Below the pieces are notes generated by a model. It was not told where the DNA came from. It searched no databases and worked only from the letters and a program-made list of their open reading frames with translations. Position numbers and translations under genes: made by a program. A stretch of DNA of 41,049 nucleotides, taken from positions 154,848 through 195,896 of the forward strand of contig NMRA01000535.1 in the NCBI GenBank assembly GCA_002633005.1, written 5' to 3'. The DNA comes from Phoronis australis. Taxonomy: Eukaryota; Animalia; Phoronida. Shown here one piece after another: positions 282-41,049 of the stretch (positions are counted from its first letter, which is position 1; every line of letters begins with the position of its first letter).

Positions 282-1007
282 AAGCTATCTGAAAGTTTCA
301 TATGAATCCGGTCAGTCATTTCTGAGATATGATGTTCCTAAGTTGGTCTAAATCTGACATTTTTCTAGGGTCCTACATAACCTTAGTGGGTTAAAAGTCC
401 TGATGTCCAAAATTCTCTATGAAAGGGTTAGGTTCATGGGGTTAGCACCAACAAAAGGGTGGACAGGTGTTTTGGAAACCCTGTGAAAGGTGTAGACGCC
501 TTACAGATGCGAGGTGCCTTTTTTCAAGTCCATCATTTAAATGGATGGGTATCTTCATTTTCCAGCTGGATCTCTCCTCAAAAATCTACTTATATAAGTA
601 CTCCCACCCCTGAGACAGACATTGACTTTACCATTTTGCTTTAGATGAACCCAAGCAGTCCATCGAGGAATGCATACCTTTGACTTTGAATAATTAATCG
701 ATTAACTTTTTCTTGTGAGCACAACCCAATTCTCTCCTTATAAAAATTTCTTTTATCTCACACTAAAGTGGCCACAGATGATAGTGTTGTTCACGTAAAA
801 GTATAAAAAATATGGTGTTCAGAGTGTGGAACTTCCATGGTGTTATTGAGAGAATAGTACTGTCTATACCGTGCATGGAGTGAGAGAATAGGACTGTCTA
901 TACCCTGCATGGAATGTCTAATGATTGAAGTTTATGTTCCTATCTTTTTAAGGTCTGTGAACATCTAGGCACCCAGTCCTGCCAAAGTGGATGACAAATC
1001 AGTCAGT

Positions 1008-12723: not shown

Positions 12724-13325
12724 TAAACTATAAATTACATTATGTACATTCTTTTGTTTCCTGAAATGATGAGTCATGGAAATTTACAAATGAAATATGA
12801 ATAAAAGCCTTAACTTCCAATGCAGACTTGAGACAGGGCAGTGAATAATCCACATACTATTTAATGATTAAAAAGCAGTCAAATGGTTAACAAGAATTAT
12901 GCAGACTTTCATGAATAGACAACACAATAAGCATCATAGGTAAACGGGCAAGTTTAAAAATCCGGTATTTCAATGTCGTTTCAGGCTCACCAAAATCTTT
13001 GAAATCAGATACAGAAATAAATGGAGTTGCGTTCCATGTATGCAAGAATTTTGCAAAGAAAGCTAGTCTGGTCTCGTGATTTGCTTGTAATGAGTGACAA
13101 TATCCTGCAGTGTTATGCCACTGTGCGTTTTCGCAAAGTTCTGGCATCCCCAGAAAGCACACCAGTTCCTGGGTTACATGCCCTGACCATCATTGATAAA
13201 CAATCACGGATCAATATACAATCATGGATCAATACACCTCTCTCTTTGGATTATGTTCTGAATGGTACAATGACAGTTATGTACAGTTATGGTGAATGAA
13301 CGGGGGTGACAACAGCACTGATGGA

Positions 13326-19300: not shown

Positions 19301-20611
19301 TAGGTACTATTCTGAGAAATAAAAAACTCACTTTATTTAGGGTTTTCAACTAGTATATAAAAAGTTAAACCACATTAGTTTCCGACATGTAAGCCCCCCC
19401 ACATACACCACAAAACAAATGAATTGGTGATAATGATTACACGTAAAACTCAATACATTGAGTCACATGTGGCGTTTCTAGGACGCACATAGTTTGCTGC
19501 AATCTTTGGAACGACTATAATTGGTAAGTAAAAAGCCACCAACACAATGTGCTAGTGATATCTTGAAGCAATGTTATGGTCATGCGATATCTTTAAAGCT
19601 CAGCCTAGTATATGACATTTTGCTGATCATAACTGATACTATGACTTTAAATGTGACTGGTGTAGCAAAAGAGAAAGTCCACTGGACTCAACTTCTTATC
19701 TGCACATATTTTGAAACAAACACAGCTTTGTTTTTTAGTGACTAACCAGAGCAAACTTTTAATTACACTACACTAGGGTGGCCTATGAATGGATTTTCTC
19801 TTAGCTAGACTTGGTTTAGTGGGTAAATTCGGAAGTGTGCTTATGTATGTGTGAACTCAGAATAAAACAATCAGGCAAAATCTTTTGTTCGTTGTATAAA
19901 GAATTTTTGTAATTATATTGACCTCATGCATCATCATCCATTTTCTCCTTTTCCAGAATTTGTGTCACAGATTCAGAGCAATTTGTGAATGGTTAATCAT
20001 TTCTTGTTTGGTGAATAAGATCGCCAATAGTTGAAAAAGCCAATAAGGGTTGAATAAAATTTAAATCATTTTATTAACAAGTGATTTGCTAAATTAGTGC
20101 AGTGCAACTTTTTATCAACGTGAATGTGCTGATTATTTGAGAGAATATACCAAGTTTCCTTGGGTATTCTAAGTTCACACATACATGATATTGAGACCAA
20201 GCAGAAAGTTTCCAAGTCAGGAGTGAGGAGCCGTCTGCACTCTTTCTTTGATTGAAACGTTTAAAAACAGTCACTAGCCTACTGTCTGATATCCGCGGTA
20301 GGAATCGAACTTCTAATCTAATAAGGAAAAATGAAGTTTAATCCATATGTCCAAACACCCAAACCAGTGCTTCCTAAACCCAGCAGACGCAATTACCACT
20401 TACAAATATCGACCGGCAAGCAATGAAGTATTCCCTCCCTGACCCTGGCTTTATTCAAGTCGAGTGGGACTCGATGTCTGATGTCTCTGATGATTATCGC
20501 AGGTAAATCGTAATTTATGGTGACGACGAAATATACTCACCATGGTTTCGGCCGAATTTTCTTGTCGGTCTTAGTGTTTACTAACGCTAAGTCATATTTA
20601 AGCTCGGCCAT
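13326..20611 (-). CDS. FAM47E: FAM47 family (FAM47E-like) protein, 454 aa; exons 20611-20541, 19257-19098, 18601-18374, 17792-17641, 16686-16569, 15985-15731, 15133-14969, 13971-13894, 13463-13326
   Basis: All introns are GT-AG with consistent phases; total 1365 nt. The motifs PWYKERIQTHY, GLDDFRDGLP, LTQHPLALYPHLEECMPPD.FEDVVDILDPE, EFCDWV..LG...NIEE.TI.SLF and KFKYGAWYLSPKSWKK are characteristic of FAM47 proteins, from recall of the family. Confidence 0.88.
14515..14587. repeat. 24-bp tandem repeat x3
   Basis: CAGACCAGTGTGAACACAGTCAAA is repeated. Confidence 0.85.
15291..15377. repeat. 28-bp tandem repeat x3
   Basis: TGGTTGCATCATTTCAGTACACTGCTAA is repeated. Confidence 0.85.
16310..16528. 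repeat. 85-bp tandem repeat, about 2.5 copies
   Basis: Units starting TCTGTTCATAAATAAAT lie at 16310, 16395 and 16480. Confidence 0.85.
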
Positions 20612-20978: not shown

Positions 20979-23900
20979 ATGGCGACCTCCTCGGTTTGTT
21001 TATCATCGTCAGATTCCAGATTCCAATGTTTCTTTTACTCTTATCAGGATTATAATTTTTGTCAAATTCAATTTTCGGTGTCATGTGTCACTGTTGACTA
21101 AGTGTAGATTCAACAGAAAGTGGTTTATGTCGCAATTTTGTTTATAGTTTAATTGTGAATTTCCGGTTCCGTGTGTCCTACAAACCTGTGCGTGAACTTG
21201 GAATCCTGCTTAATCTCAAGATCGCCTATGCGTGAACTTGGAATTGGCAGTTTAAGGCACAAAGATGAAATTTTTGTTCTGTGAATTTTTTTGTAATTAT
21301 TGGCCTCACGATCAACCATTTTCTCCTTTACCGCTGAACCGGAAGGGCCGCTGAATATTCATGTAGCGCCCTTATTGGCCATTACTGCTCGAACAAACAT
21401 TTCGATAACGGAAGTATTTGTTCGAGTTGTAAGGAGTGAAACACACTGACAACCGCCTTAAGGTGTCCCTCTATGTGCAAAAGGTATTTATAACAACGTG
21501 ACTTTCATGCGTAAGCCAGTGCGAGGCATAATTGCCATAATTCGCCGAAAAGCTTCCGGCGTATGGAGCGCCTATAGGAGCTGCATCGCCTCTGGCCGGG
21601 CCAACATAGGCGATGGTCATTGCCTACTGAACGGGAGGAATACGTGAATGGCTAATCGATTATTATTTGGTGAAACTGATCGCCCGTAGTTGAAAAGGTT
21701 GGTTAAAATTGACATTATTTTATTCCAATGTAACTTGATATAGTGCAGTGCGAATTTTTACGAACATGAACGTGATTATTTGAGTAAACTTGTCAAGTTT
21801 CCTCGCGTATTCCAAGTTCATGTAACACCTCACTTCTTGAAACTAAGCAGGATTCCAAGTTCATGTACAGCAGTTCTACTACTCTAGTCTCTAAGAGTGC
21901 GGTGGCCTGATGAATTTTGCGGTACATCAGGCGTGTTTTGGCCACAAGGCCGGGGCCATTACAGTAATCACTACTAAGTACTAATACTGGTAGAGACAGT
22001 GACCACCATCTCCAGCTGACTAGAGAAGGTTTAGCTCTTATTGCGAGGAGTATAGACAATGGTAGCAATTACATCGCCCTGGATGCCACAGGCATACAGG
22101 AGCGATAGTATATTTCCACAAAAAGTTAAGAATTTCAAATTATAGGAAATAAAATCAAATGAAACATGTATATATGCGCATAGAGTTATAATTAACACAT
22201 ACCATAAGTCTGGAGAGGATCGGTCAAGACAATTTGAACAAATTGATGAAAATCTGTCGCAGTTTGCTCAAGTTTCTGTTATTGGGTGCCATTTTGAGGA
22301 TGTTACGTGAAATCACGCATGTTGAAGAATAAAACGTCCAATGGACACAAATCTTACAGATTTCACCTGATACCTTCCCATGAGATTTTGCAAGTGTCGC
22401 GTGCCAGTGTCACGCGCTTTGCTCGGTTTCGTGGTAGCCTTTGCCTAACTCACATGACTCAGTTGAAATACTTAGTGGTTATCGCGCGTGTGGTGAAAAA
22501 GTTAACCGTAACCAAAAAAGTGGGGTTGGAATTCTTCGCCAAAGTCACCTTAGTTATCGTAACTAAGCTTCATCGAAGATATGTGTAGAAGTAGAACTAC
22601 CACTGAATAAAGTACCGTATTCGCCCTAATAACCGTCTAGGGTGCTTAGAAAAATTCGTTTCAGGGGGGTGCTTATTCTAACCCAAGGCGGTTGAAACCC
22701 GGTCTCCGAAACAGGTGAAATCAGAAGCTAAGATTCATCATATTTACGCTCTGTGACGTATCTGTAACCTACGACAGACTTTCTAGAAAATTGTGGTGCA
22801 TTGCTATCAAACTTTGCTGTTAAATTACGATCACAAAATTGTGCGTAAGTCCCACGGCAAAAACTCGCTGACTGACTGGATCGCTTGTCGATACCTGAAT
22901 GCTTGAATAAAAATATAGTTTCAACTCTAGCAAATTAACTGAAATTCTTAAGTTTTCCAGATAGCATCTCTAAGATTTTTAAGCTCCTGTAGAGTCGGAA
23001 TTAACGTCAGGTTAAGTCCAAATCTGTGCTAGATTGGACCGTCTATGATCGTAGGCCTACCTGGTAACATGAGAAAAAATCTCTGGATATGCGTTTACTA
23101 CGTAAAGTTAGTTAAGGTGATATGATAAACTCTATAACAGCAATTTGACTTGAGATCACCAAAAACCATGCACTCATCGTTCAATCAATATCTGTAATAC
23201 CTGTGGTAAGCTATTTCGATGTTTTCGTAAATTCAGACATAAAAGTCTTGATCCACACAGTTTTTTTAGTTAAAAAGCTCACTATAAGGGAGCTGTTTTT
23301 GTAAACTTAGATGTTAAAGCCTTGTTCTACGTATTTTTGTAAAAACCGCACTGTGTGTGGGGGAGGGGGTTACTGGTGAATGGGGGTTGGGGGTAACGTG
23401 TCATTAGAATTATGGATGTCCTGGAGTATTGGGAACCCCATTTTGGAACCCTATTTTGGAAATCCTGGATAAAACCCTGCATCATACCACCTGCTGCACA
23501 CAGTGTTAAAAATGGCGAGTTTCCGCTTTTGGGAACTGAACGAGGGGCTGCTCAAAAAAAGTTTGATAACAGGAGTATTTCTTCACTCTGGTTTCCTGTG
23601 TTTGATGCCTCCAGTCTGGATGTGGAATTTTCTACAGTGACTTACATGTTACAGGGGTCACAGATTTCAAGAACCAGTTTGATGCCTGTTATTTAGTGGA
23701 AAAGTGGTTCTCAAAATGTGGGATCTTTGTGACTATTACCACATTTTCTAGTAGTAAATTTATTAAAGCAATGCTTTGTTGTTGCTGTTTTTATTGTTGT
23801 GTTGTTTGCAACAGCATCATTACGGTTAGATCTTTGCGGGATATCTGCAGGGAAATGTGGGACTCTGATTTTGCATCAATTGAAATGAACTAGTTAAACC

Positions 23901-26900
23901 AGAGAACGCACACCTATGTTTCCAGCAAACAGATATCTAGAAAATTGTAAATCTCACTAGTCCCAATACCTTGTAGTAAATTTCTCATGTGGAAGGCGGT
24001 CATCGAACTCGAGTCAGCGACATCAGAGAGTCGAGCATCCAAACTGTTCAGCCAAGCAACAATACAAGCCATTTAAAGACGAGGCTTTATATGAATTTAC
24101 ATCATACACAGATGTCATGTGTGACAACGTCTCTAACATTTTAATGGACAATCATCTACAGTATTCCGATATAGCAGTGACTGTTGAAATGAGCTCCGTT
24201 GTTACTTGCTAGATGGTAAAATGTTCATCGCCAATGTGAGATTTTACAGTCGTTTGTATTCTGTGCCACACCTAGGTAGTGGCAAATCCTAATCCATCAT
24301 GTACACCAGATTTTCTGCAAATTAGCTTAACCCTGGCTAAACTATCAAAGTCATGTTACCATGTCATTGTGTACCTTTCGAATGTTGGTGCCTGGATACA
24401 TTGGGAGGCAATTGTTGTCTTAAAATCCTTCCGGCTTGAACCAATAACCAAGCAATGAGCACGTTTTTTCAAACAGTTCTTTATTGTTAATGAAATTCAA
24501 GATTGCCCTCCAACTGCCAATGTGCTCACGGTCAAATGAAAAGGAGCACAGTGTTACACTTACAGGGATGTTACCTACCTGTCATCTACACAGAGAGGAG
24601 TCAGCAAAAATGAAGGACCTGTCTATGCCGTGCCTTGACTCACCATCAAACCATCAAACGATCTCTGCACAGTGGCATTACCTTTGCAAATATCAATGGG
24701 TTGCGACTGGTTTAACAAGTCAATGGAATTAAAATTCCAATTACTGTTTCATCTCTACCTCTTCAACGAAATATTAGAGTGATCGATAACACAACAAGTT
24801 ACTTTTGTTTTCTAAGTCCAATAAATAGTTCATTGTTCAATGTCGGACTTTGTTCTTCAATTGCAGGGTGGAGACACAAAAGAAATCCTATCAGTTTACC
24901 TGCAGTTGCTGACGGGGGAACTTGATAGTGTAGCATTATCAGCGTGTTTACATACACTCCAGAAAATATTGAGGTAAGAATCCGTACAAAAGTTTTACAG
25001 ATTAGCAATTCATTCTTTTAAATTCTATCATATATTGTTGCATGTTAAATTAGTACAAAAGATTATTCAGTTCTTATCATAATGGTATTTGCAGTGGATG
25101 TCCAGTAAATATTTCTAGTTTGGGACAGTCTCTAAAGTTTAGCTGAATTTTTTTTTGTTCTGAAGATTGAGATATGGACTATATCGGTGTTCACTGCTTT
25201 TTGTGTCAACAGAGTGAACTTGAACTTCACACGGAATCATTTACCAACAAGTCTGATTAACTTTTTAGTCTGTTCAGAAGATCTCTTAACAGGGAAATCA
25301 TCCGTTTTGATGTTACTTTAAGTGAAAATGCAGATATTGGTTGATACCTCATAGAGACATTTTATTTTTCCATGATGTTCCCTTCATGTACGTCTGCCCA
25401 ACGGCTTGGCAATGAGCCCACCTCTTGGTTCTACATTCCCCTCCAGTGAGCCCACCTCTTGGTTCTATATTCACTTCCATTGAACAAACACAACCTGACC
25501 TGCACAGACCATGTTCAGTATCAAGTAGGACATTATGTTTCCCACAGATGGTAAATATACAGCAGGAAAATCATTGTTATTACAAGAAATTGTTTCTGAG
25601 ATAACCGAGGGTTTGTATTTTAGTAACATAACTTCATTTAAACAAAACATAATGAATTTTGAGTGTTTCAATGCAGTAATATCAAGAAGATCTTGTACGG
25701 CACAAAACGAAAGTACCATAGTCAGGTGGCTATATAATTCTGTTTACTGCAAAAACAACACTAACAGGAAATAACTATTTGGATAGAAAAATTCTGATTA
25801 CAGAATGGCCACAGAATGACCACCTTACCAAGTGAACTTTATTGTAAAATCTCCTTCTCGCTCATCAGGTGAGACTACTTCCGCCCAATCCCAAGCAGCT
25901 GTCGTTATGACGATCATTTTACTCAGAATACTTTTGGCTTGTACTGTAGTTATTTAATATCTTGATTGTGGACATGTGTGTGTGCATTATGTGTTACTGT
26001 TTATTTAAGTAATGTTACCAAGAGTAGTGACAAGAAGTTTCGGCACATGAAGAAAGACAACAAGACGTTCCATTGTAAAGTATGGCAGTATGAGGCAGCA
26101 CACCAGTTCCTGTTGGCCACTGGATGGGCACAGGTTAGGAGTTTTGTCTATCCAGGCCTTCCATTTTCGTTGTTTTTCCAGTTGGAAACATTGTAACGAA
26201 TATAAGGTGTAATAGCATTTGAATTTAGCAAAAAAATCATCTAACTTCTGGTAATATCCCTTTTTTAACTGAATTGGACATTTCCATTGGAATTCGCATA
26301 TTTCAGTAGATGAGTACTGTTCTAAATTTCTTTAGATAAATTGCTGAAAAGAAAATAGTCAATCGAACATGTTTGAGCGCGAGGCTGACTCATTCATTAT
26401 CTGCGTCGCGGACTTTGTCAAGTTTCAGTGACTTATGGTGATTCTTCACTTGTTTAGCTCACAACATGGCTGACAAGTGATAGTTAACACACAACATGGC
26501 TGACAAGTGATAGTTAACAATAAGATATGGCTGACAAGTGATATTCTATTTTTTCAAATTTCTCCTCAAAATAAAGTTTAAGAAAATGTAGTCCAAGTTT
26601 GCAATAAGATGTTTGTTGCTTTTCTAGGATGAAAGCTGTGTTTATTTGCTGCCTGACAACAATGTGGAGTTGGCTCTAAGCCTGGTCAACCATTATATCA
26701 GGTAAAGCTTCTTAAAGTCCAAGAAGCACACGTTAGCCTTTATTACATGGTTAGAGGATGTTATAAGGATCCAAGAAGTACCTACCCCTTAACTAATACA
26801 CAATCCGTAATCGAATAAAGGTTAAATAAACGCGCCACTCACGATTCGGACCCGAAGAACACACCGCCATTTTGAACTTACCGCGAACCCGGAAGTACAT

Positions 26901-29900
26901 GTACAATTCATTTAGGAACCCAGGCTTAGTATACGCTGTCTGTGCGACTGCAGCAATGTCTGTTACCAGCCCATAAAATAATCAACAGTGCGCCTTAACA
27001 TTAATAAATTGTATCGAAATTGCTGACGAAATGTGGCGAATAAATTTTGAGAGAAATTATTTTGCCGTACTTGGGCCTGCAGCCGATTGAACCCATTGCG
27101 GACCGAGACCAGACACTGGGAAACGGTAGGCATGGGGCTTGCAAGCTGTTTTGTCAATGTAAAAGGTTCAAATTATAAATGACGTATACATACGAGGTAG
27201 TTTCAGACACTTGCATAAAATTACGGGCTGCTTAGCCCTGTGTCACACTGCTGCGGCAGCCCTTAGGTTAGCTAGCCTGCCAGCTACCATCAGTATGAAG
27301 ACCATTGTCAACATACAGGCTGGTTAGTCCTGTGTCACACTGCTGCGACAGCCCTTAGGTTAGCTAGCCTGCCAGCTACCATCAGTATAAAGACTATCGT
27401 CAAAATACAGCCAAGGCTAAGCCTACCTGGTCCCTGGCCACAGCGCTTGCTCAAACAAGGTTTATTTAGAACTTGTTTTGGGGTCTTCTGGCGAACTGTC
27501 CCTAGTTGTCGGCTTTCAAGATTGATTTGCACAGACTGCATGAGCGCACTGACCAAGTGAAGCCTAAAAAATGGGGGGCTCGAATTTTTGAGAATGTGTA
27601 CCTTTTACTATAAGATTTACTGGGTATGTATAGAGGTATGAATTGCGGACGCCAAATTTTGATACTTCCTGCCTTCTGGTGGACTTCTGTCTCGTGTTCT
27701 ACTTTTTTCGAGTTCTCATGCTTCTGACTGAGGCAGACCTTTTTCCATTTCTCTAAATAGGGGGCTCATTAGAGCACATAATTATGTATATGACAAGTGC
27801 AGTACAATATCAATTTTTTATGTATTAAGCAGTGAGTTTGAAGGAAGTGACCTTACAAATGAACCACATCGATAATTGTAATTTGAGTGGAGGTGGCAAT
27901 CTCAATGACAGAATTGCAAGAACCCATGAAATAAAAAACTTCCAGTGAACTTGGTTTTCAATTATATGATGTTTTTTTAAATTTATGTATATTGTATTTA
28001 TAGTAAACACAAGGCATCAAGAAATGTTGCCTGAAGATGCTAGTTTCTTTTTTGTAGCAACATTGTGTCAAAATGTATCATGGTTAAATCTTCACAAATT
28101 ACAAAGTATCCTGCTGAACATGCCTGTCAGTTCAGCAAATGCTGCCATCTTGTCAGTGCCACTGGAAATGAGACCAACGGGAATTGTGAGCAAATTCATA
28201 ACTTACTAAGTAACAACTGCGAGGCTGAAATTTGGTGAAAACTGTTGAATTGTGCAGAATACTGAGTAAAGATATATGTCTCACTAAATTTCACTGTAAA
28301 ATGTTGGTGAAAAAAATTTATACAAAGTTTTAAACTCGTAACTTAACACTCTGTCGTCCAAGATGGCCGACCCGATCCAAACTAAGTGACCCAAATTTCA
28401 CCACAAAAATTGCAATAACTTTCCACTGCTTGCCCCGATTTTGATACTTTCTCGATTTTTACTGAGTAGGATGCATTATCTTTCCGATGATAGCAAAGTA
28501 TTTTTTCAAAATGAAAAAAAATTCAAAACAAAAAAATTGGGTCGACTACCCTACATAACAGGAACTAAACACCAATGCCATTTTAACATTGATAATAAAC
28601 AAAAGTATGCGTAACATTACAAAAAAATTTAACGACCACTAACTACGAACTATAAATACACTTTCTATACAAGCGAATCACGAAATATTACTAATAAAAC
28701 AAAATAATGAAGTCTTTTCGAGCAAGCGGTTGCACATTTAGTTACAAGGAAAAAATAGCGGCGTTCAGGACAAATTCCTGAACTGACGAGCCGGAAATGT
28801 CGGTAATGAAATAACCGATGACAGCCAGTAATTATCTGCTCACAGAGAAGGGTCAAATGCAGGTAAGAAAATGCTTGTGGCAGGAAAGGCGAAAAGACTA
28901 TAACGAAAGGGTATCGAAAATAAGATTTTATTTATTAACTATTTTCGGATACTGGAGCCTCATTGGCATTTTAAGATAAGGACTTTAACACTTGATGGTA
29001 GTGTTGTAACTGATTTGATGACGCGTCACTGGCACTGTCACTTTAGAAAAAGTTTGAATCAAAATCTATTCTAAGACTGAAATCGATTCTGTGATACTGC
29101 TGAAAAAATTCACATAACTTATGCAAAGTCTAGCAGTCGCTCGCAAATCTTTGTCTTGTATTGCTAAAAGTCACGTAAACAGGGTGAAGTTTGCTTGGCC
29201 ACTAGCAAATCTTTTTCTGGTAGTGGAGGAATATGATATGTTGTTTGCTAGGGAAACAAAAAATGTGGTATTTGAGTGTCTTACTCTCAAAATGTTGTTT
29301 GATGAGTACCTGGCTATACTTATAATGTGGTATTTGAGTGTCTTACTCTCAAAATGTTGTTTGATGAGTACCTGGCTATACTTGTAATTAGTTGTGAACA
29401 TGAACATCCTTACCAGTAATGTCACTTAAAAACTGATTCAGAAGCGAGCCTTAAATTGTAAATTATTTATGAAAAATTCTGATTCCTACCACTGTTTGAT
29501 GGTTGGCCTTTTCTTATTATTTATTCAATTATTTAAGCGGCTTTCATTAGCACAACGTGTGGAATTTTGGTGATGCATATTTTTAGCCAAAGTATTTGTA
29601 ATCGAACACAGATGTGAGATGGAAACTAATTTTTAGTTTTGATTGCAGACATTACATGTAATTCTTTCTTCTTAGTGTCGTTATTATGCCTTGGTGGTTT
29701 GTGCTCTTTCGACACTCTTCACAAAACTGCCACTAAATACCCCTTTCTTTTCAACTAAAACACATCAATTCGAGCTAAATCTCAACAAAATCTTTATAGG
29801 TGTCAGAGTTATGACTTCCTGTGCAGACGGGCATCATTACTACAAATTTTCAACTAAACTGCCATACGTAATATTGACATTTCTGTGGACGTCTTGTCTA

Positions 29901-32900
29901 ATTTATTTTGAAACCTACCTAGTGTGCTCTAATCACCTTCACCTGTTACAGTTTACACTGCCCTCCTGAGGTGACCTCACCTGCTCACAGCAGCCGCAAT
30001 ATGGCTGGACCAAGTTGGAGCTCTGATGAGGTAATGAGTTTAAAGTTATATTCCATCTTGTGTGACTGGCTGAAAAACAAATATCGAATCTTATATTATC
30101 TTATATAATTGGTCTTTTTTAGTAAAATTCCTTTCCATGATAGGATTCTATTTCCAACAAAAACATGAAAACCTTTATTCTCTGTGATGTGAGTTGGTAG
30201 TAGAATCCTGACTTGGTATGAGACCGATTTTATAAGAATAAAAGTCTTAAGGATATCTCAACCTTGACACAAAAAATTGGCCATTTTTGCAATATTTTAC
30301 ATACGTCTAGCAAAATACCTTATCTTCATTCTCAGGGAACTTCAGGTACAAAATATGTAGCGAGAAAAAAAAAAAGATTTTAGCAGAACCATTTTGGAAG
30401 CACACAACCACATGGAAATTTGTTTACTATTTATTTGAGGTCAAACGTTACGGGGCTGTCCCTCAAATCGAATATCCTACCAGGCACAGAGCACCTAAGT
30501 ATGTACCCACAGTCCTTTCATTCAGCGAGTCACCATAATGTTGAGTCAACAACATGCCCATAGGATAGAACATAGTTTAGATCCTGAAGGAGTTGTGTAT
30601 CTGCATGCACACGGCCATTGAGAACATGTGCTAGAAGTCGTCTTGCGCCTCTGTGAGTTTGTGTTCATGAACACAGCAAGTTGTGAAAAGAGATAAATCC
30701 TCACCCAAATTCCTTAATTTGAAAGGTAATTTGACATTTTGGTGTTTCGATCTCATGCTCACAATGCGCTTGAACCACTGACTTAATTTCTGTTATCCAT
30801 TTCGTACTAGGGTTTTATATCAATCTCCAGGCGCCTGGTGTGTATAACAATGAACTGTTGACCTACTGTAAAGTGGACCACAATGCACCAGCTTGACCCA
30901 CTTAATATGTTGGCTCCGACTGCATGACCTTGTTGGATTCGATGCATTGGGAATTGGATTGGCTGATAAAACATTTTTGTGATAATTAAGTTATGCACTG
31001 CAAATTCAGTTGACATTGTGTGTGAATGTTGAAATAATGAACAGGGCTAAAGGATGTTAAGGTTTTATCATAGACTATCTAAAGGATGTTAAGGTTATAT
31101 CATAGACTATCTAAAGGATGTTAAGGTTATATCATAGACTATCTAAAGGATGTTAAGGTTATATCATAGACTATCTAAAGGATGTTAAGGTTATATCATA
31201 GTACATGCACCGCCAACTACATATACTTTCAATGGACAGAATCTGTGGTCTTTTGCACAAGCCGTTGCCTCATTTTCACTAGCGACACCTGGCCAAATTA
31301 TCTGGTGATATTTCTGGCGAGAACGTCATCTGCTAATCATGGCCGGCTGCTGTGTGGTCGGGTGGTAGTAGCATTGCTAAAAGTACTCACGATACCAACA
31401 GTTCTGACTACTTGTTGGAAGACTTTGAACAGCGTTTCAATGTCCAAATTATAATTACTTTTCGTTGTACTGACGCGAGAATTTCCCGTCACAATTCACT
31501 AACCGGAAACTGCACCAAATAATTTAGGAGAGTGGCGCCTCCTCTAGGTTAGTACACAAGAAAATCTCGGAGTTGCGAATCTGTTGTCTTTAATCTATGG
31601 TTATATTGACCAAAAACAAGATTTCACTAAATAATTATTTAACCAATAAAAGTCTTTGAGATCACATCTTGCCACATAATCGGCTTTTTCTCGACTTCGG
31701 CAAATCAGTTAAATTTGAACTTATGAACACGAGTTCTCGAAAACAGGGTGATAGATTTCGCTGAAACTTTCCAAACTTGATGCTTATTCATCAATCTCAA
31801 AAACACTGTTAAGATTTTTGCATAACGTAACGAAGACGAATACCACTTCAGATCTATTTTTTACAAAAGTATGTTGTTTCGCAAGTTGATTTGTCATAGA
31901 AATCAATGAAAAGACTAATCGAAAACTTCTAACACCATTTTTAAGGTTACTGGTGAAGTTTTCATTTGAAAAATGTTTCATTGAAATCAACCAAGAGGTT
32001 ATTTTGCTATGAATGTACCTTTCTTAAGCATGAATTTTTGACTTAAGTAAGGTTCTATCGTATTATTAATAAATACACATAAATATAAAACGTATTTGTG
32101 TATTACCTGATCTTTTTTCTTTCAGAAAATATGTACTTTTATTTGATGACTAAGCCTATTTTTTGATAAAATAGAATGGAGGCCACTAAATAAGGTTTGG
32201 GATAACCTTAATTTGAATTTTGTTATTAAACAACTGAACATCGTAAAACATTTTAGTTTTTGACGAGACAGATTGATTATATCAAAAATGGCGTTTTATA
32301 TTTCAACCCAATTAAAAATTATGGGTCGTGGGTTGGAGAAATAAATTGGGCAGTGGGTAAGAAATAAAAATGCCTTCCCCCGCCCATACATTTTTACTGG
32401 AACAGTCCTTAATTAATAGCCAGTATTTCTCATATATTCCTTTTCATTTAATTAGCCTAGTTTCCATGGCAGAGAATGTATAGTAAATTTTGAAATTTTT
32501 AAAACAGAAATCTTGCCTTGTATATACATGTAATACATGACATTGTATATTCATGTATATATATAATACTTGTATATACATGTATATAATTATACTTTCT
32601 TTAGACCATAATTGCTTTGAGGGGAAATTGTCATAAACTATTCCCACTTAAAATAGAGTCCTCGAGCAAGTTGCTTCACAAACAGTCCTACTTTTTTGAT
32701 AAGGTGTTATTGCTACAAATTTTGAAGCTGTAAGAAATCTAGTGCTATACAAAAAACCTGAGTGATATGGTTTGAGGGAAAATTGCTGTGTCTTGTAAGA
32801 ATTTTGCCAAGCCAAGCTTGCCTGTTGTTGGTTGCCTTTTCAATTCGGTGTTCATGGTTTTCCAGTTGTTAGTCTTTTTGTTATGCAGCGTAGTGAAAAG

Positions 32901-35900
32901 GAAAAACTAATCGCTGAAGAGCGGAAGAAAATGTTGGCGCAACTGAAAAGAGAAAAGGAGGAAAAGAGAAGAATTAGTGAACAGGTACTGCCCATTGATT
33001 GGTTGACTGTTAATAAAGGAGGTACTGCCTATTGTTTGATTGACTGTTAATAGGGGAGGTACTGCCCATTGATTGGTTGATTGTTGATAACGGAGGTACT
33101 GCCCATTGTTTGGTCAACTGTTGATAAAGGAGATATTGCCCATTGATTGGTTGACTGTTGATAAGGGAGATTTGGTCGAACTTTTTTTAATTAGTTGTTT
33201 TGCATGATTAGTAGTGGATTTTGAAACAACGATTGTGTTGGCTATTAATACCGAACATGTATTGGAAAGATAGAAGATTCTCTTGAAATATGCTACTTCA
33301 ATTGAAGGCAGAATAAGTTTGATACGACTTTAAAGTTTTTTTTATTAATGTTTATTACGAAATCATCAGAATACAATGAATATACATAACCCAGAAAGTG
33401 CCAAGAGGCATGATTATGTCTTGGTTAAAAAATACAAAGAAGTCTATATACAATTATCATACACAAATACATTAATTAAAAAACTGATGTTAGGATTACA
33501 ATGATATATGATTACGAAATTCAATGTAAATAAATCATTTTCATACACATTCTATTCACTCACACAAAGAGATTTAATATTATAAAGAAATTTTGATACT
33601 ATTTCGAATAAACCTTATTTTCATTAGGGTTGAGTTCTAGACATTCATATAGAAAAAATTAATTTTGTTGTACGCGGAATTTCAGAATATTTTTTGTAAA
33701 CATTGGGGTATTGTTTGATTGTCTGGAAAAAATGTACCTTCTGCATCTTGCATACCTCACAAGCAAAGAAGACGTGCAGGAACTCAGAGGCGAAATACTA
33801 TTAAAATTATGTCTAAATTTCTCATTCTTTAGGAATAGACCACATCTTGATCTGTATAGGGTTATTTCATAGTTGTGAGGAAGTTGGAATGATGTCAATG
33901 GGACTGGCAAGTCTTGAGTAGTGGTATGCATTTTAAAGTTATTTTTGAGAGTGACAATTGAAGTGCTTTCTTTTATTTTGGATGGTAAGGAATTCCAGTT
34001 GTCAATACAATTTAATATCGTTGACCTCCTGAAGGCTTGGCTGAGGGAAGATGGAATAGTGTGCATATTACTTTGCCGCAGTCCTGGTCTCGTGCTTGGT
34101 CTTTTGTAGGAATCAAAGAGAATTTTGTTTGAATAGTTGTTTATGTTGGTTAAGACTTTGAATGTATACATGGACAGGTGGAGTTTACGATGGGTTGCTA
34201 GTTTGCTCCAGTTGAGACTATTTAGAACCTTGATTGTGTTGGACCCTTTGTATGCTCCTGTTATGGCTAAGGCTGCTTGGTATTGTAGTCTTTCTAATTG
34301 AAGAAGTATGCCAGCATTTCCAGATTGGTAGATTATGTCACAGTAATCTAGATGTGCAAGTGCAAAAGTCTTGGACAGAGTTTCAAGATGCATGGAGTTG
34401 AGATGACGAGAGACAATTCTAGTTGGATTAATTAATTTTTGTACTTTATGAACGAGTTTGCAACAATGAGGAGTAAATGTAAGCTTATGGTCTAGTAGCA
34501 CGCCAAGATGTTTGTGCGTGAACTTATTGGGAATAACTTCCCCATTGAGTGATAATTCCAAGGTTTTAAGTTTTGTCGTCTTTTAGATGTCAAAAATACC
34601 ACTCTGAGCTCCACCAGTTGTCACAATGTCACCTGTGAGCTCCACCAGTTGTCACAATGTCATGTCACCTGTGAGCTCTACCAGTGGTCACAACGTCACC
34701 TGTGATCTCCACCACTGGTCACAATGCCACTTGTGAGCTCCACCAGTGGTCACAATGCCACCTGTGAGATCCACCACTGGTCACAATGCCACCTGTGAGC
34801 TTCTCCAGTGGTCACAATGCCACCTGTGAGCTTCTCCATTGGTCACAATGCCACCTGTGAGCTCCTCCATTGGTCACAATGCCACCTGTGAGCTCCACCA
34901 CTTGTCATAATGCGGGCGTAGAACAGCAGGTTCACAAACTACTGAAACATAATACTCATCTCATCACGAGAGTAGTGAAATACTCGAGTTGTGTGCAGGC
35001 AATTAACACTCTCATCTAGTGGTATTGTTAAAGGTGTAAACTGGTGGTAAACGTCGTAGTAGTATCAAAAAATTGTATTGAATGTCTTGTGTTCCAGATT
35101 AAAAAGGATCGGCAGGATACAAATACCAGAGAAGTGAAGGACTCGGTAAGTGATAAACATTTTAAGCGAACACTCAAGAGATGTATTTTCCTTATTGTTG
35201 AACATTAACTTCTCCATACTCTGTAATATACTGCACAAGCCTAAAGTATTCAGACAAAATGACCCTGAATTTCCCCGTCATGACAGCTGGGCAGAAACTG
35301 AATTCATGGTCATAGTAGTCTCCCTCTTGACAGACTTAATTAAGTGGAAAGTTAGTAAGGTGACTAAGCCATTCTTTAATTAGAGTTTTGCCATCCTAAT
35401 TGTTATTACCAGAAATTTATGCACAAGTAGCAGTCATTACGGGACAACACTACTTTTGTCTTGTACTGTAACATTACATTGCTCGACAGTACTTCTTCTG
35501 TGAACTGTGTTTGTGTCTGAGTAAGTTAGCGCTGATCTGTAGCGTATGTATTACAGCATGCTCAGCACCTGCACGGAGGAGGAAAGATGACAAAGTTTGA
35601 AGACATCGGAGTGAACCTTAACAAAGGGGTAAGCATTGGCAGGGAATGTAGTCAGTTGCTACTGAAGTTCTGTACAGTGAATTGGCTGCTCGCTGGTTGC
35701 TGTCATTGTGTCAAATACTGACTTTAGGAGATAAAAAATTCTATCTTCTATTTTTGCTTAAATTTTATTATGTTTGGGCATTTTCCCACTTCACTATCTA
35801 ATGGACATTATTCACGCAGTCACCATTTTAAAAATGAGCCTCTCTTTAGGTTTAAAAAACAATGCAATTGAGACATAAATATAAGGAGGCATGCAAGAAA

Positions 35901-36863
35901 TCATGTTTTGCACTGTGATTAAGCACAGAATGCGTAGTTTTTTAACTTGCGTGATTAAGGCACGTATGAAACATTTGTTCCTGTCCAATTGGTATTATGC
36001 ATCACAGCTCTGATCTATTATAAATACTTAAATCTTTGTATGTGTATGTTATTCCTTCATGGAAGTGACCAGATAATTATCATATTTAGTATTTGGTGTA
36101 GGAATGTTGTCTTGGAATCTGAGTATTAAGCACAACACGTTAGCACAGACACGTTTTAGAATATTAACTTAGTCAGTATTTTTGCAAGAGCCCAGAGAAA
36201 TGTATCAATTTTCAAGACATTTAAATTAATCTACTTGACTCATGACCATAATAAAAATAGTGGCGTGGTCACTCATTGAAGACATTGAGGAACTTACAGA
36301 ACTTGAAATGGATCTGTGCAGAAATGTATGTCAATCGTTAGTACAAACATGTCATGTATGATAGCCCAACAGTCTTGGGACTCATTTCAGACTAGATGGG
36401 CGACTTGCACTATTGTACAAAATTGTTAATGGAATAGTGACAGTTGACGAATCCCACTCTCTTGTCTGTATTACACACTTTCAAGACAATTTTAATCACA
36501 AAGCATATCACATCCTTCATAGCAGACACAGTTTCATTTGCATGTTTCCTGTCATTATTGGGCAGTGGAATGAACTGAGGAACAATTTGGTCTCAGCACC
36601 AACTGTTGAGACATTCAGGTAAAGATTGTTTCAAATGTCATCTCATCTCCTTTTATCCTGCACTGTACAGTAATTCTCTAATTCTTGGACGTGACCAGTC
36701 CTTTTATCCTGCATTGTACAGTAATTCTCTGATTCTTGGACGTGACCAATCCTTTTACATCAATGTCTTCAACAATGATTGAAGAGTTCAGATGTAGTGG
36801 AAGAAGACTAACAAGTTATAATGATAATTACTTCCCATTTGTTTTCAGGGTGGATGAGGTTAA
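20979..36863 (+). CDS. PUB-domain protein with coiled coil and C-terminal GGG-Sec-G (predicted selenoprotein, 209 aa); exons 20979-20993, 24867-24973, 26010-26133, 26628-26701, 29952-30030, 32889-32984, 35098-35145, 35557-35628, 36849-36863
   Basis: Nine exons join in frame through GT-AG junctions (630 nt), giving MATSSGGDTKEILSVYLQLLTGELDSVALSACLHTLQKILSNVTKSSDKKFRHMKKDNKTFHCKVWQYEAAHQFLLATGWAQDESCVYLLPDNNVELALSLVNHYISLHCPPEVTSPAHSSRNMAGPSWSSDERSEKEKLIAEERKKMLAQLKREKEEKRRISEQIKKDRQDTNTREVKDSHAQHLHGGGKMTKFEDIGVNLNKGGG(U)G*. The pattern L.KIL.N......KFR....N..F...V......FL.A.GW is the PUB signature. Exons 1 and 5 are the least certain. Confidence 0.8.
21186..21870. mobile_element. Non-autonomous DNA transposon (MITE-like) with about 36-bp terminal inverted repeats
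   Basis: CTGTGCGTGAACTTGGAATCCTGCTTAATCTCAAGA (21186-21221) is the reverse complement, with a few mismatches, of TCTTGAAACTAAGCAGGATTCCAAGTTCATGTACAG (21835-21870). Subterminal copies of TGAACTTGGAAT occur on both sides. A diverged relative lies at about 19845-20220. Confidence 0.75.
23990..24056 (-). mobile_element. Degenerate tRNA-derived SINE head
   Basis: The minus strand reads TGGCTGAACAGTTTGG...GAGTTCGATGACC, with A/B-box-like motifs at tRNA spacing. Confidence 0.4.
27236..27410. repeat. About 92-bp tandem duplication
   Basis: CCTGTGTCACACTGCTGCG...GCTACCATCAGTAT...ATACAG is present twice. Confidence 0.85.
31047..31201. repeat. 32-bp minisatellite, about 5 copies
   Basis: CTAAAGGATGTTAAGGTTATATCATAGACTAT is repeated. 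Confidence 0.95.
32983..33170. repeat. 37-bp minisatellite x5 beginning at the exon 6 splice donor
   Basis: AGGTACTGCCCATTGATTGGTTGACTGTTAATAAAGG is repeated; AG|GTACTG occurs with GT at 32985, 33022, 33059 and 33096. Confidence 0.9.
33336..34600 (-). mobile_element. 5'-truncated non-LTR retrotransposon (CR1/L2-group LINE), C-terminal part of reverse-transcriptase ORF2
   Basis: ORF 33659-34561 contains HKHLGVLLDHKLTF..H, LDYCDIIY, LERLQYQAALAITGA, LNW..L..R and WNSLP, typical of the post-RT thumb region. A short A-rich tail lies at 33336-33345. The element is antisense within intron 6 of the PUB gene. Confidence 0.88.
34605..34912. repeat. 31-bp minisatellite (GTGAGCTCCACCAGTGGTCACAATGCCACCT), about 10 copies
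   Basis: Tandem units read directly; they abut the 5' truncation point of the LINE. Confidence 0.95.
36390..36622 (+). mobile_element. Degenerate LINE ORF2 C-terminal remnant
   Basis: Translates RLALLYKIVNG...FPVIIGQWNEL...VSAPTVETFR, resembling the RL..LYKI..G...FFPRTI..WN.LP......S...FK end of LINE ORF2. Confidence 0.6.
36849..36863 (+). other. Terminal coding exon GGT GGA TGA GGT TAA with predicted selenocysteine codon (TGA 36855-36857)
   Basis: Strong acceptor (ttcccatttgttttcag) in phase 0 with the donor at 35629; an in-frame TGA is followed one codon later by TAA. Confidence 0.8.
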
Positions 36864-38284
36864 ATGCACATCGGCCACTGTCCATGTTCAGATACCAATT
36901 GGCTCCACACCTTATGAATAATGGTTACTATGGAATATTTTTACTAAAATGATTTCTGTATATTTATAGTGTCATTCTTTATTCATTCTTTTTTCTTACA
37001 TTGAAATTTGATAAAGACTTAATCTGGCTCTTAAATTTCATGAGTTGTGTGTACTCGTTTTAGTCATACTAACTACAAATGCCTTTAATCGACATTTAGT
37101 TTTATTATAGTCTCAGTTTTGTCCATTTGTTATCAGTTCTTACAAAACCAAAATATATGACATAAATTGTTTGGACATATATTTTTGGGACCTTTCGTTT
37201 AATTTTATTGTGAAAGAAGTTAAGGCAATGCTCTTGTCATATTTTGTTTCAGCACTGGTTAGAACCAGCTTAATAGCATATTATGCGATTACACATTTGT
37301 GGGTGCATATTGTTTTTTATTGCATTTCTGCTATTACTAGGTAGTTCAAGCATGTGTTCTGTAGGTGTTAGTACCTTTCAAAAATGCAAGATATCTTGAC
37401 ATGATGTATTACAAGGGAAGCACCTGATCAACACTAGCTTCTAAGATATCTTGATGTAATGTATCACCATGTATTGCCATGGAAGAACATGATTGCATCA
37501 TTCGCGACAGAGTTGATGCTTGTCAGTCTTCTGGTCTTTACTTCCATATACCTTTCAAGGCCATTACTGCATATGTCTGAGTCTACCTTTAGTATCTTCA
37601 TGAAACAGGCTGGTAATGAGTGGAAACTGGCGACTTCAGTCAGTCTAAGAGTAAATCACTTCACAAATGTCGCAGGCAGGGCCTGGACGAACAATAAGAA
37701 TCGGTGCAAGATAACCACCAATTCATGTGTAAATTAAGTCATGGTATTGGGGTTTGAAACTGGGAAATCTGAACTGGGTTAGTCATGTTAGGTCTTCAGT
37801 CACTGGCCAGAGACCAAAGCAAATGTAGCATTTTATGGTGTTTACTGTTGGCTTGTGGATATTATATGCTGGAGGTTTTGTGAAGGTAACGGATTGAGTG
37901 AACCTGGTCTCTGAAGATTTGTGCTGCTAATTTATGGCCCAACTTTGTCTATTATTTAAATTATTACAAACTTATGCAATTTCTGTGCTGATTAAAACAA
38001 CTCCTTGCAGACCCTGGCCCAGGGTCTAATCCCAGAATCGAGACTTAGCAAATCACACTGCACGATTACAGTACAAAGTCAGCCTACTCGGTCAACTTTT
38101 GAGTTGTGTTTTGCACATAGAGATTAGACACCAGGCTCAGATGGTTAGCCAGCCATTTTGACAAGTTATATTTGGTAGAAACAATAATTTTATCCTTGAG
38201 AGAGAACAATTTTGTCATTGAGTTGTAGCTATGTCTTCCTTCAAACACAGTTATGGTGCTAGTTCTACTATAGTAAATATATTT

Positions 38285-38364
38285 GCTTTGGTCAAATGGC
38301 CATGATGACAATTTTGCAGGAAAACATTGGAACTGCAGAATCCGATAGAAAGTGACTAGGAAGC
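38285..38364 (+). promoter_or_regulatory. SECIS element (eukaryotic, type I-like) in the 3' UTR of the PUB-domain gene
   Basis: Helix I is GCTTTGGTCA / TGACTAGGAAGC. The core is A-TGAC (38305-38309) / CGAT (38343-38346), giving tandem G.A pairs. Helix II is ATTTTGCAG / CTGCAGAAT (9 bp). Apical AAAA lies at 38321-38324, 11 nt after the core. Confidence 0.82.
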
Positions 38365-38485
38365 TTGACATACATTCTTTTTATTTGCGTGAGTTCTTGT
38401 GTTGATTTTGGAATTTGAACAGCAAATGCATTTTGTAAACTTAATCACTATCAAATTCATTTGATGTTAATCATAATCATTATTC

Positions 38486-38491
38486 AATAAA
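38486..38491 (+). promoter_or_regulatory. Candidate polyadenylation signal of the PUB-domain gene (second AATAAA at 38605-38610)
   Basis: First canonical AATAAA I find after the stop codon, about 120 nt downstream of the SECIS. Confidence 0.6.
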
Positions 38492-39447
38492 ACTAAATGC
38501 ATTTGATGAGTGCTGTTTACGGCGCAACAGCGTAAACCAGAAATTGTCGTCTTGTGATAAAACGTTAAATGTGCAGCTGTTGAGATCACATATAAATATA
38601 TTTCAATAAAAAACCATTCCAGCAACAGGTCACTTATTCTAAGACACAAAAATTAAGACAATGACTCAAATTCAATGCGGTTGTCAAGACAAAAATATGA
38701 AAGTGTGAAATCAATTTCGAAAATACCAAATGACTACTTTTTGATATCCAAAGGCAATTTTAAAATTTTTAAAAGCGAATCTGCCGACCCAAAAAAATTG
38801 TGATTTCAAATTCTTAACAGTAGTAACATACCATAAGCATGAAAACAATGACCACTTATAATTGCATCTAACAAATCATGAGACGGAAAATTACACAACA
38901 GTCATCAAGTGTACTTTTAGTAACCCTTGAAATTAGTGAATTTAACTGGTTAAGTCACCAGCCTTGAGCCAATGGAATATCTGACAGACAATGGCCAGAA
39001 TTGATGACTTGTAACAAAAATTGCAAAAGTAAATGGATTTTGTTGTTTTACAGCTCTTGTCAAAGCCAATAACTTCAATAAGTTTATCCCATCCGACAAT
39101 AATACCCAAAATGCATTTTCAGCTGCAAAAGCAATATTGTCTTTAAAAATTTAAGGGGCTATTTGTCCTTCAGGCTTGACATCTGAAAAAGTAGATACAC
39201 AATTCAGTCACTGCACGTATTTTTTCTTGAAAAGCAGAAGAAAGAAATTTGCAATAAATGCAGGTGCCTGTTTTTGATGGAAAACTTTAGAAATTTACTT
39301 TTATCAAATTAATGGTCATTTAAAAATTGGAGAAAGAACTTGCTGAAATGTAATTTGTAATGTTCAGAATGACATCTATAGGGTATGAGTGCGTAATAAG
39401 AACACAGTCATGGATCATGACGCATCGGACAGAGAAGCTTTTGGAGT

Positions 39448-40100
39448 TTAGTCCCCCTCTTCTGGATTGAAGTATTTGACTGTGTCAGTAAGCAGCTGGA
39501 TGTCTGAAGACTTCACTTTCTCTGAGCACATTGGACATGAGTCATCCGACTGAAGAAGGCTGTAAGGTATATAACACTGATTGTCATAACGTAAAAAACA
39601 TGTAACATTAAGCAAATTAGTCTTTCAGTTTAGTCTGAAACGAAATGTCAATGGATCGATATGGTTTAAAGCAGCCTGCCATCAGTTTTGAAAAATGAAT
39701 ACAACGAAAAAGAAACACCCAACTCTACATACTTGGCATGTGGAAAGCAAACATAAATAAGCTATCTTCAAACACCATTAAAGTCCAACACAGTGCAAAT
39801 AAGGCGAGACCAAAGTTTTTTATCTTCAAACTCTAATAAATAATTAAAAGTTAGCAGCAATCCATTTAATATTTGGTCCATGATGTTTAATACCATTGCA
39901 CAGTCACTGTATCTAAGAATCAAAATCAAGAGTTTAACCTCTTAATGTAAGTTTGGTGTTCTACTCCTATTTTACTTGATGCTTTTACTATTGAAATGAT
40001 ACGCCAGTTGTCACGTGTCTTACCTCAAGAACTCATTGTGTGAAGCTGGGAAATCACAGTTGGGACAAGCAGTGAAATCTTCCTTTGTTACGTGGCGCCC
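39448..40100 (-). CDS. WDR19: WD repeat-containing protein 19 / IFT144, last two coding exons (40100-40024, 39559-39448); rest of gene lies beyond the window
   Basis: The spliced translation GRHVTKEDFTACPNCDFPASHNEFLSLLQSDDSCPMCSEKVKSSDIQLLTDTVKYFNPEEGD* matches the WDR19 C-terminal zinc-binding region (GRH..K.D...CP.CDFPA...E........CPMCSE) as I recall it. The intron is GT-AG, phase 2. Confidence 0.88.
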
Positions 40101-40134
40101 CTAGCAAGTGGATTAGATGGAGCAATAATATTAT

Positions 40135-40478
40135 TAATATACAGGGTGTCATCAAAATGTAGTGATAATACTAGTAATATACAGGGTGTCACCAAAATGT
40201 AGCAATAATACTAGTAATATACAGGGTGTCACCAAAATGTAGCAATAATACTAGTAATATACAGGGTGTCATCAAAATGTAGTAATAATACTGATAATAT
40301 ACAGGGTGTCATCAAAATGTAGTAATAATACCAGTAATATACAGGGTGTCACCAAAATGTAGCAATAGTACCACAAATATACAGAGTGTCACCAAAATGA
40401 AACGAAAATACCAGTAATATACAGGGTGTCACCAAAATGTAGCGATAATACCAGTAATATACAGGGTGTCACCAAAAT
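40135..40478. repeat. 40-bp minisatellite (TAATATACAGGGTGTCACCAAAATGTAGCAATAATACTAG), about 8.5 copies
   Basis: Tandem units read directly, within a WDR19 intron. Confidence 0.95.
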
Positions 40479-40701
40479 AAACTTGCACTTTTAAAATTAG
40501 TACAGTTCAGATGGCGTGGATCAAACTACACATGCAGGCCTACTGCATAGTTACCCTATGCTGTAAAAGTGAATGCGTGAGCCATCACGAGGTCTGGATA
40601 TAGAAAAACGGCAAACAAACTACTCCTTATGAATTTCAACCAGTCATCTAATTCCAATTAAGTTAATAAAAAGGTAGTTTAAAGTATATTTTGGGACACC
40701 A

Positions 40702-40739
40702 ACGCACACGCACACGCACACACACACACACACACACAC
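40702..40739. repeat. (CACGCA)n/(CA)n microsatellite
   Basis: Read directly. Confidence 0.9.
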
Positions 40740-41049
40740 CTTAAGAGCCTCAATGAGGTAAAATGCTACATGTTGAAAATAATGAGTTTTTCTTTTCCAA
40801 TTCCGGCTGCACTCCATTTGTCCATCATGTTGTATATTGTGGAGTGTTGATAATATAGGACTGCTCTATTTCTACTCAGGTGTCACTACAGAATTATGCT
40901 ATTTATACAACATGTGAGCGTTTCAACGTATGAACATCATATAATAATTGCAAACTTCTTTCATATTTTCTAATGCTTACTTGCATTGTGAACTACTGTG
41001 GTCTCCAGTGAAGCAGAATTTGCCTTTGAAGATCCGTGGCTTATATATA

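Follow-up and report, generated by a model that had tools for sequence, protein, structure and literature searches.

The hairpin at 38285-38364 on the + strand of the analysed stretch of Phoronis australis DNA (41,049 nucleotides of contig NMRA01000535.1, hereafter the window) is read here as a working type I SECIS element. In this reading, to which we assigned a probability of roughly 0.88, the penultimate UGA of the gene that carries the hairpin in its 3′ UTR is decoded as selenocysteine (Sec) and the protein ends Gly-Gly-Gly-Sec-Gly. The selenoprotein assignment was upheld because of the context, namely the transcript, the conserved UGA codon and the hairpins of homologues, and not because of the hairpin alone. 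As an element the SECIS is ordinary; the interest lies in the gene that it revealed.

Gene structure and transcript

RNA reads from four runs of two studies supported seven GT-AG joints that link eight exons, from 24867 to 36849. The joined exons formed a single open frame with a PUB domain, a long helix and a tail ending Gly-Gly-Gly-UGA-Gly-UAA. The features of the gene were as follows.

20979..20993, + strand: candidate first coding exon, 5 codons with a phase-0 donor (one of 20 ATG-donor combinations listed)
24867..24973, + strand: coding exon, N-terminal helices of the PUB domain (donor by reads, acceptor predicted)
26010..26133, + strand: coding exon, core of the PUB domain (Pfam PF09409, 35.3 bits, cutoff 34.3; reads)
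26628..26701, + strand: coding exon, end of the PUB domain (reads)
29952..30030, + strand: coding exon, linker (reads)
32889..32984, + strand: coding exon, long charged helix (reads, structure model of a homologue)
35098..35145, + strand: coding exon, end of the long helix (reads)
35557..35628, + strand: coding exon, conserved tail motif F-x-D-I-G-V-x-L-N-x-G (reads, homologues)
36849..38500, + strand: last exon, 15 coding nt and about 1.6 kb of 3′ UTR (joint, fall of depth at 38400-38550; 3′ end approximate)
36855..36857, + strand: predicted Sec TGA, followed by Gly and by TAA at 36861-36863 (TGA-GGN-stop in 5/5 homologous loci)
37991..37996, + strand: ATTAAA 5′ of the SECIS, not detectably used (depth)
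38486..38491, + strand: AATAAA, likely poly(A) signal 3′ of the SECIS (sequence, depth)

The in-frame penultimate TGA that the preliminary description had announced upstream of the hairpin on the same strand was located at 36855-36857, where it is followed by GGT TAA and lies 1448 nt upstream of the SECIS core. No letter other than TGA was seen at this codon among the read rows listed, at a depth of about 4-25. The joint leading into the last exon (35628/36849) was found in three of the four runs, namely X1, X3 (4 reads) and X4 (22 reads), and was absent from X2. Since the UGA stands 6 nt into the last exon, it would likely escape junction-dependent decay. No joint from the candidate exon 20979-20993 to 24867 was present among the joints listed.

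Stranded depth was continuous from 36848 through the hairpin in all three raw-read runs, which demonstrated the inclusion of the hairpin in the mRNA. Transcripts ending upstream, for example at an ATTAAA, had been named as one of the observations that would speak against a SECIS. This hexamer had been given at 38001-38006 and is actually found at 37991-37996; depth was 27-34 at 37958-38031 in the three runs, with no step at the ATTAAA. In the same runs the depth was 20-53 at 38254-38327 and went down to 0-1.7 by 38476-38549, and a contig of run X1 covered 38255-38622. AATAAA sites follow the hairpin at 38486 and 38605. The drop near 38476-38549 likely reflects use of the one at 38486, with no poly(A) ends among the loose ends listed. 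The UGA and the hairpin were thus placed on the same mRNA by joints and continuous depth from short reads, with no single molecule spanning both.

Several observations concern the introns and the linker. The linker varies in length, as the linker exon of run X1 has 21 additional bases in frame at 29970. Within the intron 24974-26009, the segment 25152-25795 showed a sense depth of about 2 in 3/3 raw-read runs and is possibly an alternative exon or retained intron. On the - strand of another intron, 33659-34582 holds a 307-codon stop-free frame without a Pfam match, to which reads from many other copies map and which we take to resemble the C-terminal part of a LINE-type reverse transcriptase.

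Structure of the hairpin

In type I SECIS elements, helix II comprises about 9-12 bp and unpaired apical adenines stand 11-12 nt above the core. The motifs ATGAC, AAAA and CGAT described for the hairpin were all recovered, at 38305, 38321 and 38343 respectively, and so was the 9-bp helix II with one A.C mismatch beside the core. Its parts are listed below.

38285..38294, + strand: 5′ strand of SECIS helix I (predicted; competing local hairpin)
38305..38309, + strand: conserved A and 5′ strand of the core, AUGAC (Rfam SECIS_1 register; identical in homologous loci L001, L003 and L008)
38310..38342, + strand: helix II (A.C mismatch and 9 bp) with a 13-nt apical loop (folding, covariation)
38321..38324, + strand: apical adenines (11-nt spacing in 4/4 family hairpins)
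38343..38346, + strand: 3′ strand of the core, CGAU (motif position)
38353..38364, + strand: 3′ strand of SECIS helix I (predicted)

The core is formed by AUGAC facing CGAU, with the tandem GA/AG and the preceding A in place. Helix II consists of nine consecutive pairs, 38311-38319 with 38333-38341, and is set off from the core by the A.C mismatch 38310/38342. The apical loop of 13 nt carries no helix III, which gives a type I layout, and the AAAA begins 11 nt above the core. With nine pairs and one mismatch, adenines at the expected height and covariation among homologues, helix II and its loop agreed with a SECIS. Helix I, described as roughly 8-10 bp, is a prediction: an arrangement of 5+5 pairs is possible (38285-38294 with 38353-38364, with a 2-nt bulge), but it competes with a local hairpin (-14.8 kcal/mol for this form versus -16.2 for the minimum) and is only partly populated, the pair probabilities being 0.25-0.80 within the 80-mer and close to 0 when 251 nt are folded.

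According to the available text of PMC3753652, the SECIS core consensus is UGAN/KGAW. In the 3′ core strand CGAU, the GA and the U fit this consensus and the first base is C where G or U is expected, so the strict consensus was not satisfied at the K position. Compared to type I SECIS elements in general (Rfam RF00031; SECISearch3, PMC3753652, as far as described there), the hairpin shared the AUGA core, the tandem GA/AG, the 9-10 bp helix II, the apical adenines at a height of 11 nt over the core and a 3′ UTR position behind an in-frame UGA. It differed in the CGAU in place of KGAW, the mismatch beside the core, a helix I that is distant and weakly populated, and a score of 13.1 bits, below 35. 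As a SECIS of type I, the hairpin is ordinary apart from one core base that departs from the consensus.

Run X1, the more divergent one, differed from the window at two positions within 38285-38364, namely 38356 and 38360. Both changes keep a helix I pair, which is slight support for the structure; the variant hairpin folds 2.8 kcal/mol less well. No change was listed for X1 in 38300-38350.

Homologous proteins and conservation of the UGA codon

Protein searches yielded 27 homologues or matches, 12 of them with the tail motif. Among the 16 matches of the unindexed search were one unrelated protein (P0001) and several fragments or other PUB proteins; word-index searches with single exons gave no match, which weighs little. 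Named records came from Owenia, Paralvinella, Liolophura, Potamilus, Montipora and a Lingula cluster, that is from coral, molluscs, annelids and a brachiopod. They were labelled unnamed, hypothetical, uncharacterized or UBXN6-like and are known here from proteins, not DNA. The closest match, at 45% identity, clusters with Lingula. Together with the introns and the FBXO8-like and FAM47-like neighbours, this match pointed to an invertebrate animal as the source of the window. Eleven of the 12 tail-motif records end in GG at the position of the UGA and one (P0021) ends Trp-Gly. A Cys-Gly ending occurred in none of the 12, and no Cys-ending homologue was present among the 27 proteins. A C-terminal Sec codon taken as a stop is described in the accessible part of PMC12822975 as the commonest error for selenoproteins in RefSeq, and SELENOK and SELENOS are reported as almost Sec-only in algae in the corresponding part of PMC7539508. 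P0023, a distant PUB homologue, has two Cys in its tail and a Gly-Gly end, and may from its sequence be a variant with a resolving cysteine.

Metagenome contigs were scanned with a pattern that stopped before the UGA, in order to leave this codon unbiased. The 12 loci obtained comprised five family members and seven unrelated ORFs, which were dropped. GGG-TGA-GGN-TAG/TAA was present in 5/5 family loci, so that the UGA is conserved at the same position in all of them; the TGA was invariant and the Gly and stop codons variable. PUB was confirmed in the four loci long enough to scan. L001 and L003 shared 73% and 83% identity with the Montipora record, and L002, L007 and L008 were distant, GC-rich loci sharing the PUB domain and the GGG-UGA-G end. 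In L002 (61-999, + strand) and L007 (86-1015, - strand), a pair of N-terminal EF-hands is fused to the PUB domain ahead of this end. Directly after the stop of L007 follows a GC-rich hairpin of 13 bp, with strands on either side that resemble a core pair but are non-canonical.

Hairpins in homologous loci

SECIS-like hairpins were found in three of the five homologous loci (L001, L003 and L008), all in the same register. Those of L001 and L003, both of type II, lie 56-62 nt behind the stop and scored 26.7 and 23.3 bits with SECIS_1, both below the gathering score of 35. The weaker hairpin of L008 gave no Rfam row and departs from KGAW at the W position. Within the 76-79 nt of UTR covered in L002 and L007, no SECIS was found. 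The L001, L003 and L008 hairpins have a helix III and are thus of type II, whereas the window hairpin lacks it and is of type I.

Over the four hairpins, 87.5% of the helix II cells were paired, against 37.5-47.5% in slid controls, and 7/10 helix II pairs showed two-sided changes. Four sequences underlie this covariation, two of which are close to each other, and their alignment had been fitted to the structure. Because MAFFT misaligned the 3′ helix strand, the model-fitted alignment was used together with an ungapped, core-anchored count, which gave 9, 9, 10 and 7 of 10 pairs. The adenines stood 11 nt above the core in 4/4 family hairpins. The covariation in orthologous UTRs, suggested earlier as a check of the element, was obtained, with a covarying helix II in the window hairpin and in 3/5 homologous loci.

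Strength of the hairpin alone and alternative readings of the UGA

Taken alone, the hairpin was unremarkable in its folding energy, which was not above chance (z-score -0.70; 48 of 200 shuffles as good). The probability of helix II was about 0.1 within a 251-nt context, as calculated by ViennaRNA, which models neither the kink-turn nor SBP2. Rfam SECIS_1 (RF00031) aligned in register over the whole model in a 131-base scan, at 13.1 bits and E 6.5, which did not reach the Rfam gathering score of 35, and no SECIS row appeared in a 5-kb Rfam scan (36000-41049, E up to 5). A covariance model, R1, was trained on the L001, L003 and L008 hairpins only. It put 38305-38346 first among non-training matches in 50,359 bases, with 21.3 bits and E of about 0.001 (the next scored 11.8), and this was the only R1 match under E 0.01 on the window. 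The covariance-model check thus failed at the Rfam threshold and succeeded with the family-built model.

Chance was estimated with a structural descriptor composed after the element had been seen. On the shuffled 3′ UTR it matched in 0/2000 cases at 9 pairs and 5/2000 at 7 pairs; whole-window shuffles gave a mean of 0.04-0.07 matches and the real window gave two. The 38305 hairpin is the sole + strand match in the window, the second match being a poor look-alike. This look-alike, at 13146-13193 on the - strand, carries a mini-stem and lies about 130 nt behind the stop of a FAM47-like gene. It was rejected as likely chance: it has four mismatches beside the core, was missing from the 20 matches of R1 (E up to 5), and nine self-picked FAM47-like exons showed neither an in-frame UGA nor another internal stop. 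The hairpin had been said to support the selenoprotein call independently of the protein sequence. The SECIS and selenoprotein call itself held, but the hairpin alone is weak, given the Rfam miss and the look-alike.

The CGAU core strand and the A.C mismatch beside it, together with the missing helix III that homologues have and the competing fold in longer context, would fit a genuine selenoprotein whose hairpin here is degenerate or weak, with another UTR element doing most of the recoding. This is very unlikely, as no other + strand sequence of the window matched the descriptor and none reached R1 at E under 0.01, the spacing and apical adenines are as in the homologues, and the divergent X1 left 38300-38350 without a listed change.

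Highly improbable, too, is that the UGA is a true stop, with a Gly-Gly end that serves as a constitutive C-degron or in a ubiquitin-like manner and a hairpin that is a chance look-alike. The GG end of 11/12 database records, the unexceptional stability and sub-threshold Rfam score of the hairpin and the loose look-alike elsewhere in the window would agree with it. However, the TGA is fixed and followed by a single Gly codon and TAA or TAG in 6/6 loci, with proteins that share only 25-42% identity with the window protein, and covarying SECIS-like hairpins are present in 4/6 loci.

The Trp-Gly end of P0021 would suit a readthrough of the UGA without selenium, by near-cognate Trp, Cys or Arg, which would mask the Gly-Gly end and leave the hairpin uninvolved; this protein record may, however, reflect a gene caller that reads UGA as Trp. 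Such a readthrough is scarcely credible, since hairpins of SECIS type that keep the core and the apical adenines occur in 4/6 loci and the G-G-U-G end is identical to that of SELENOS, as given in part of PMC7090344.

PUB domain and p97

Pfam found PUB in 13/13 aligned members. The structure model of the homologue P0026 placed a PUB domain with confidence, followed by a helix of 56 residues and a tail modelled at low confidence. The top Foldseek match of its PUB domain was that of PNGase (2hpl; rmsd 1.4 over 94 columns), and the PUB profile matched UBXN6 (6sap) with E 9e-14; a search of the ESM Atlas gave generic PUB clusters only. In the coral record, which bears the name "UBX domain-containing protein 6-like", Pfam finds PUB alone. 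Relative to PNGase/NGLY1 (2hpl, 2ccq) and UBXN6/UBXD1 (6sap, 8fcl), the fold is the same and the pocket Asn and second aromatic are kept, whereas the window protein lacks both a glycanase and a UBX domain, its first pocket Tyr is replaced and its tail is of the Sec type.

Both pocket Asn were invariant in 13 sequences. The K/RxxN carboxylate-binding motif is present as K-K-D-N in the window protein, its Asn invariant in alignment A5. The YxxN(x)9Y pocket motif is absent from the window protein, which reads I-x-x-N(x)8-F; the first pocket Tyr is aliphatic in 10/12 sequences, Phe in 2/12 and Tyr in 0/12. In the sections of PMC6995525 that were available, SPATA2, which lacks the first pocket Tyr, binds no PIM, and other PUB domains bind less well or not at all once this Tyr is lost. 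According to part of PMC10641518, the Leu-Tyr-Gly end of p97 is a ligand of PUB domains. For the window PUB domain, p97 binding is plausible as a prediction, although the first pocket Tyr is lost.

Comparison with known selenoproteins

SELENOS and SELENOK, which are ER membrane proteins, have a penultimate-type Sec in a Gly-rich flexible tail, as is predicted for the window protein. SELENOS also ends G-G-U-G, binds p97 and has a UGA-truncated form that is removed through a Gly-Gly C-degron (PMC7090344, in part). It differs in binding p97 through a VIM, as stated in the accessible portion of PMC10641518, whereas the window protein has a PUB domain. Furthermore, a membrane helix is lacking in the window protein, which in contrast to SELENOS and SELENOK also has no Cys near the Sec: no Cys follows residue 104 of its 203 residues (first exon predicted), so a resolving Cys near the Sec is missing. 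That the gene is a diverged SELENOS or SELENOK orthologue, as the common G-G-U-G end, long helix and p97 biology might suggest, was rejected as having practically no likelihood, because a membrane helix is lacking (maximum 19-residue hydropathy 0.86-1.41 in 12 sequences, the first exon of the window protein being predicted), a PUB domain is found in every aligned member, no Selenoprotein S/K Pfam row was seen among 25 of 26 families listed, and the available part of the algal survey treats PUB, SELENOK and SELENOS as separate families (PMC7539508).

This survey (Jiang et al. 2020, PMC7539508) holds an algal selenoprotein family called "PUB domain-containing protein", which like the predicted window protein combines a PUB domain with Sec. 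In its available text the family is named as one of those with the narrowest distribution in algae and is missing from the list of families that animals are reported to have as well. The window family is likely the same family, the two being compared by family name alone, and the loci L002, L007 and L008, with PUB and the GGG-UGA-G end, are by their sequence consistent with a family reaching into protists.

A literature search found a PUB selenoprotein named for algae only (PMC7539508, in part) and none described for animals, the 2025 metazoan selenoproteome review lying outside the search. The word PUB was absent from the main text of bioRxiv 10.1101/2025.05.29.656587 and of bioRxiv 10.1101/314781, and from the main text of PMC12822975 as far as accessible. 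A selenoproteome survey of six invertebrates listed 21 families, with PUB not among them in Table 1 (PMC3473315, the part available), and current selenoprotein pipelines look for known families only, as stated in the accessible text of PMC12822975. The PUB selenoprotein is thus probably new for animals, whose selenoproteome is treated as nearly closed. If true, cnidarians and lophotrochozoans would gain one family, and public entries now called "uncharacterized", "hypothetical" or "UBXN6-like" would lack their last two residues. Together with SELENOS and SELENOK, the protein would make three with a Sec tail and a tie to p97-type quality control; being soluble, it should ease the testing of what a C-terminal Sec does.

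Proposed mechanism

SBP2 binds the GA/AG kink-turn of a SECIS, and eEFSec delivers Sec-tRNA. In the proposed mechanism, SBP2 on the kink-turn of the window hairpin would, together with eEFSec, place Sec at the UGA at 36855-36857. We give even odds that the product is a soluble p97/Cdc48 cofactor: its PUB domain would dock on the C-terminal tail of p97, and the long helix and flexible tail would bring the selenol to unfolded substrates as a reductant, making the protein a cytosolic counterpart of SELENOS. Under low selenium, termination at the UGA would leave a Gly-Gly end, which by analogy may equally well act or not act as a C-degron. The available part of PMC7090344 reports that the Sec-less, UGA-truncated Gly-Gly form of SELENOS is degraded through KLHDC2/KLHDC1 and that SELENOS needs Sec for reductase activity. 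A C-degron has likewise been shown for truncated SELENOK. A soluble p97 cofactor with a degron-gated selenol is proposed because PUB domains bind the p97 tail and because SELENOS provides the precedent for such a tail and degron.

In addition, it is speculated that the pocket binds the Sec-Gly end of the protein itself. The combined picture is offered tentatively, as somewhat less than an even chance: a family outside the animal catalogues, present in corals, molluscs, annelids, brachiopods and protists and UGA-truncated in the records, would act as a soluble p97 redox cofactor with a selenium-set Gly-Gly degron, and its PUB pocket may bind its own Sec-Gly-COOH as others bind the Tyr-Gly-COOH of p97, which would amount to a selenium switch for p97 docking.

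Neighbouring features of the window

A FAM47-family gene occupies 13325-20611 on the - strand, with Pfam PF14642 on exon 18314-18679. The candidate exon 20979-20993 of the PUB gene is arranged head-to-head with it, and the distance of about 370 bp between this exon and the FAM47-like start codon suggests that the two genes share a bidirectional promoter. Exons with F-box and Sec7 domains were found at 969-7745 on the + strand, in a gene that is presumably FBXO8-like. Just past the 3′ end of the PUB gene, a convergent transcript was seen on the - strand at 38624-38900 and beyond, with reads ending at about 38620-38770. Short tandem repeat arrays were recognized by eye at 31040-31200, 34600-34900 and 40150-40480, in introns and in the downstream region.
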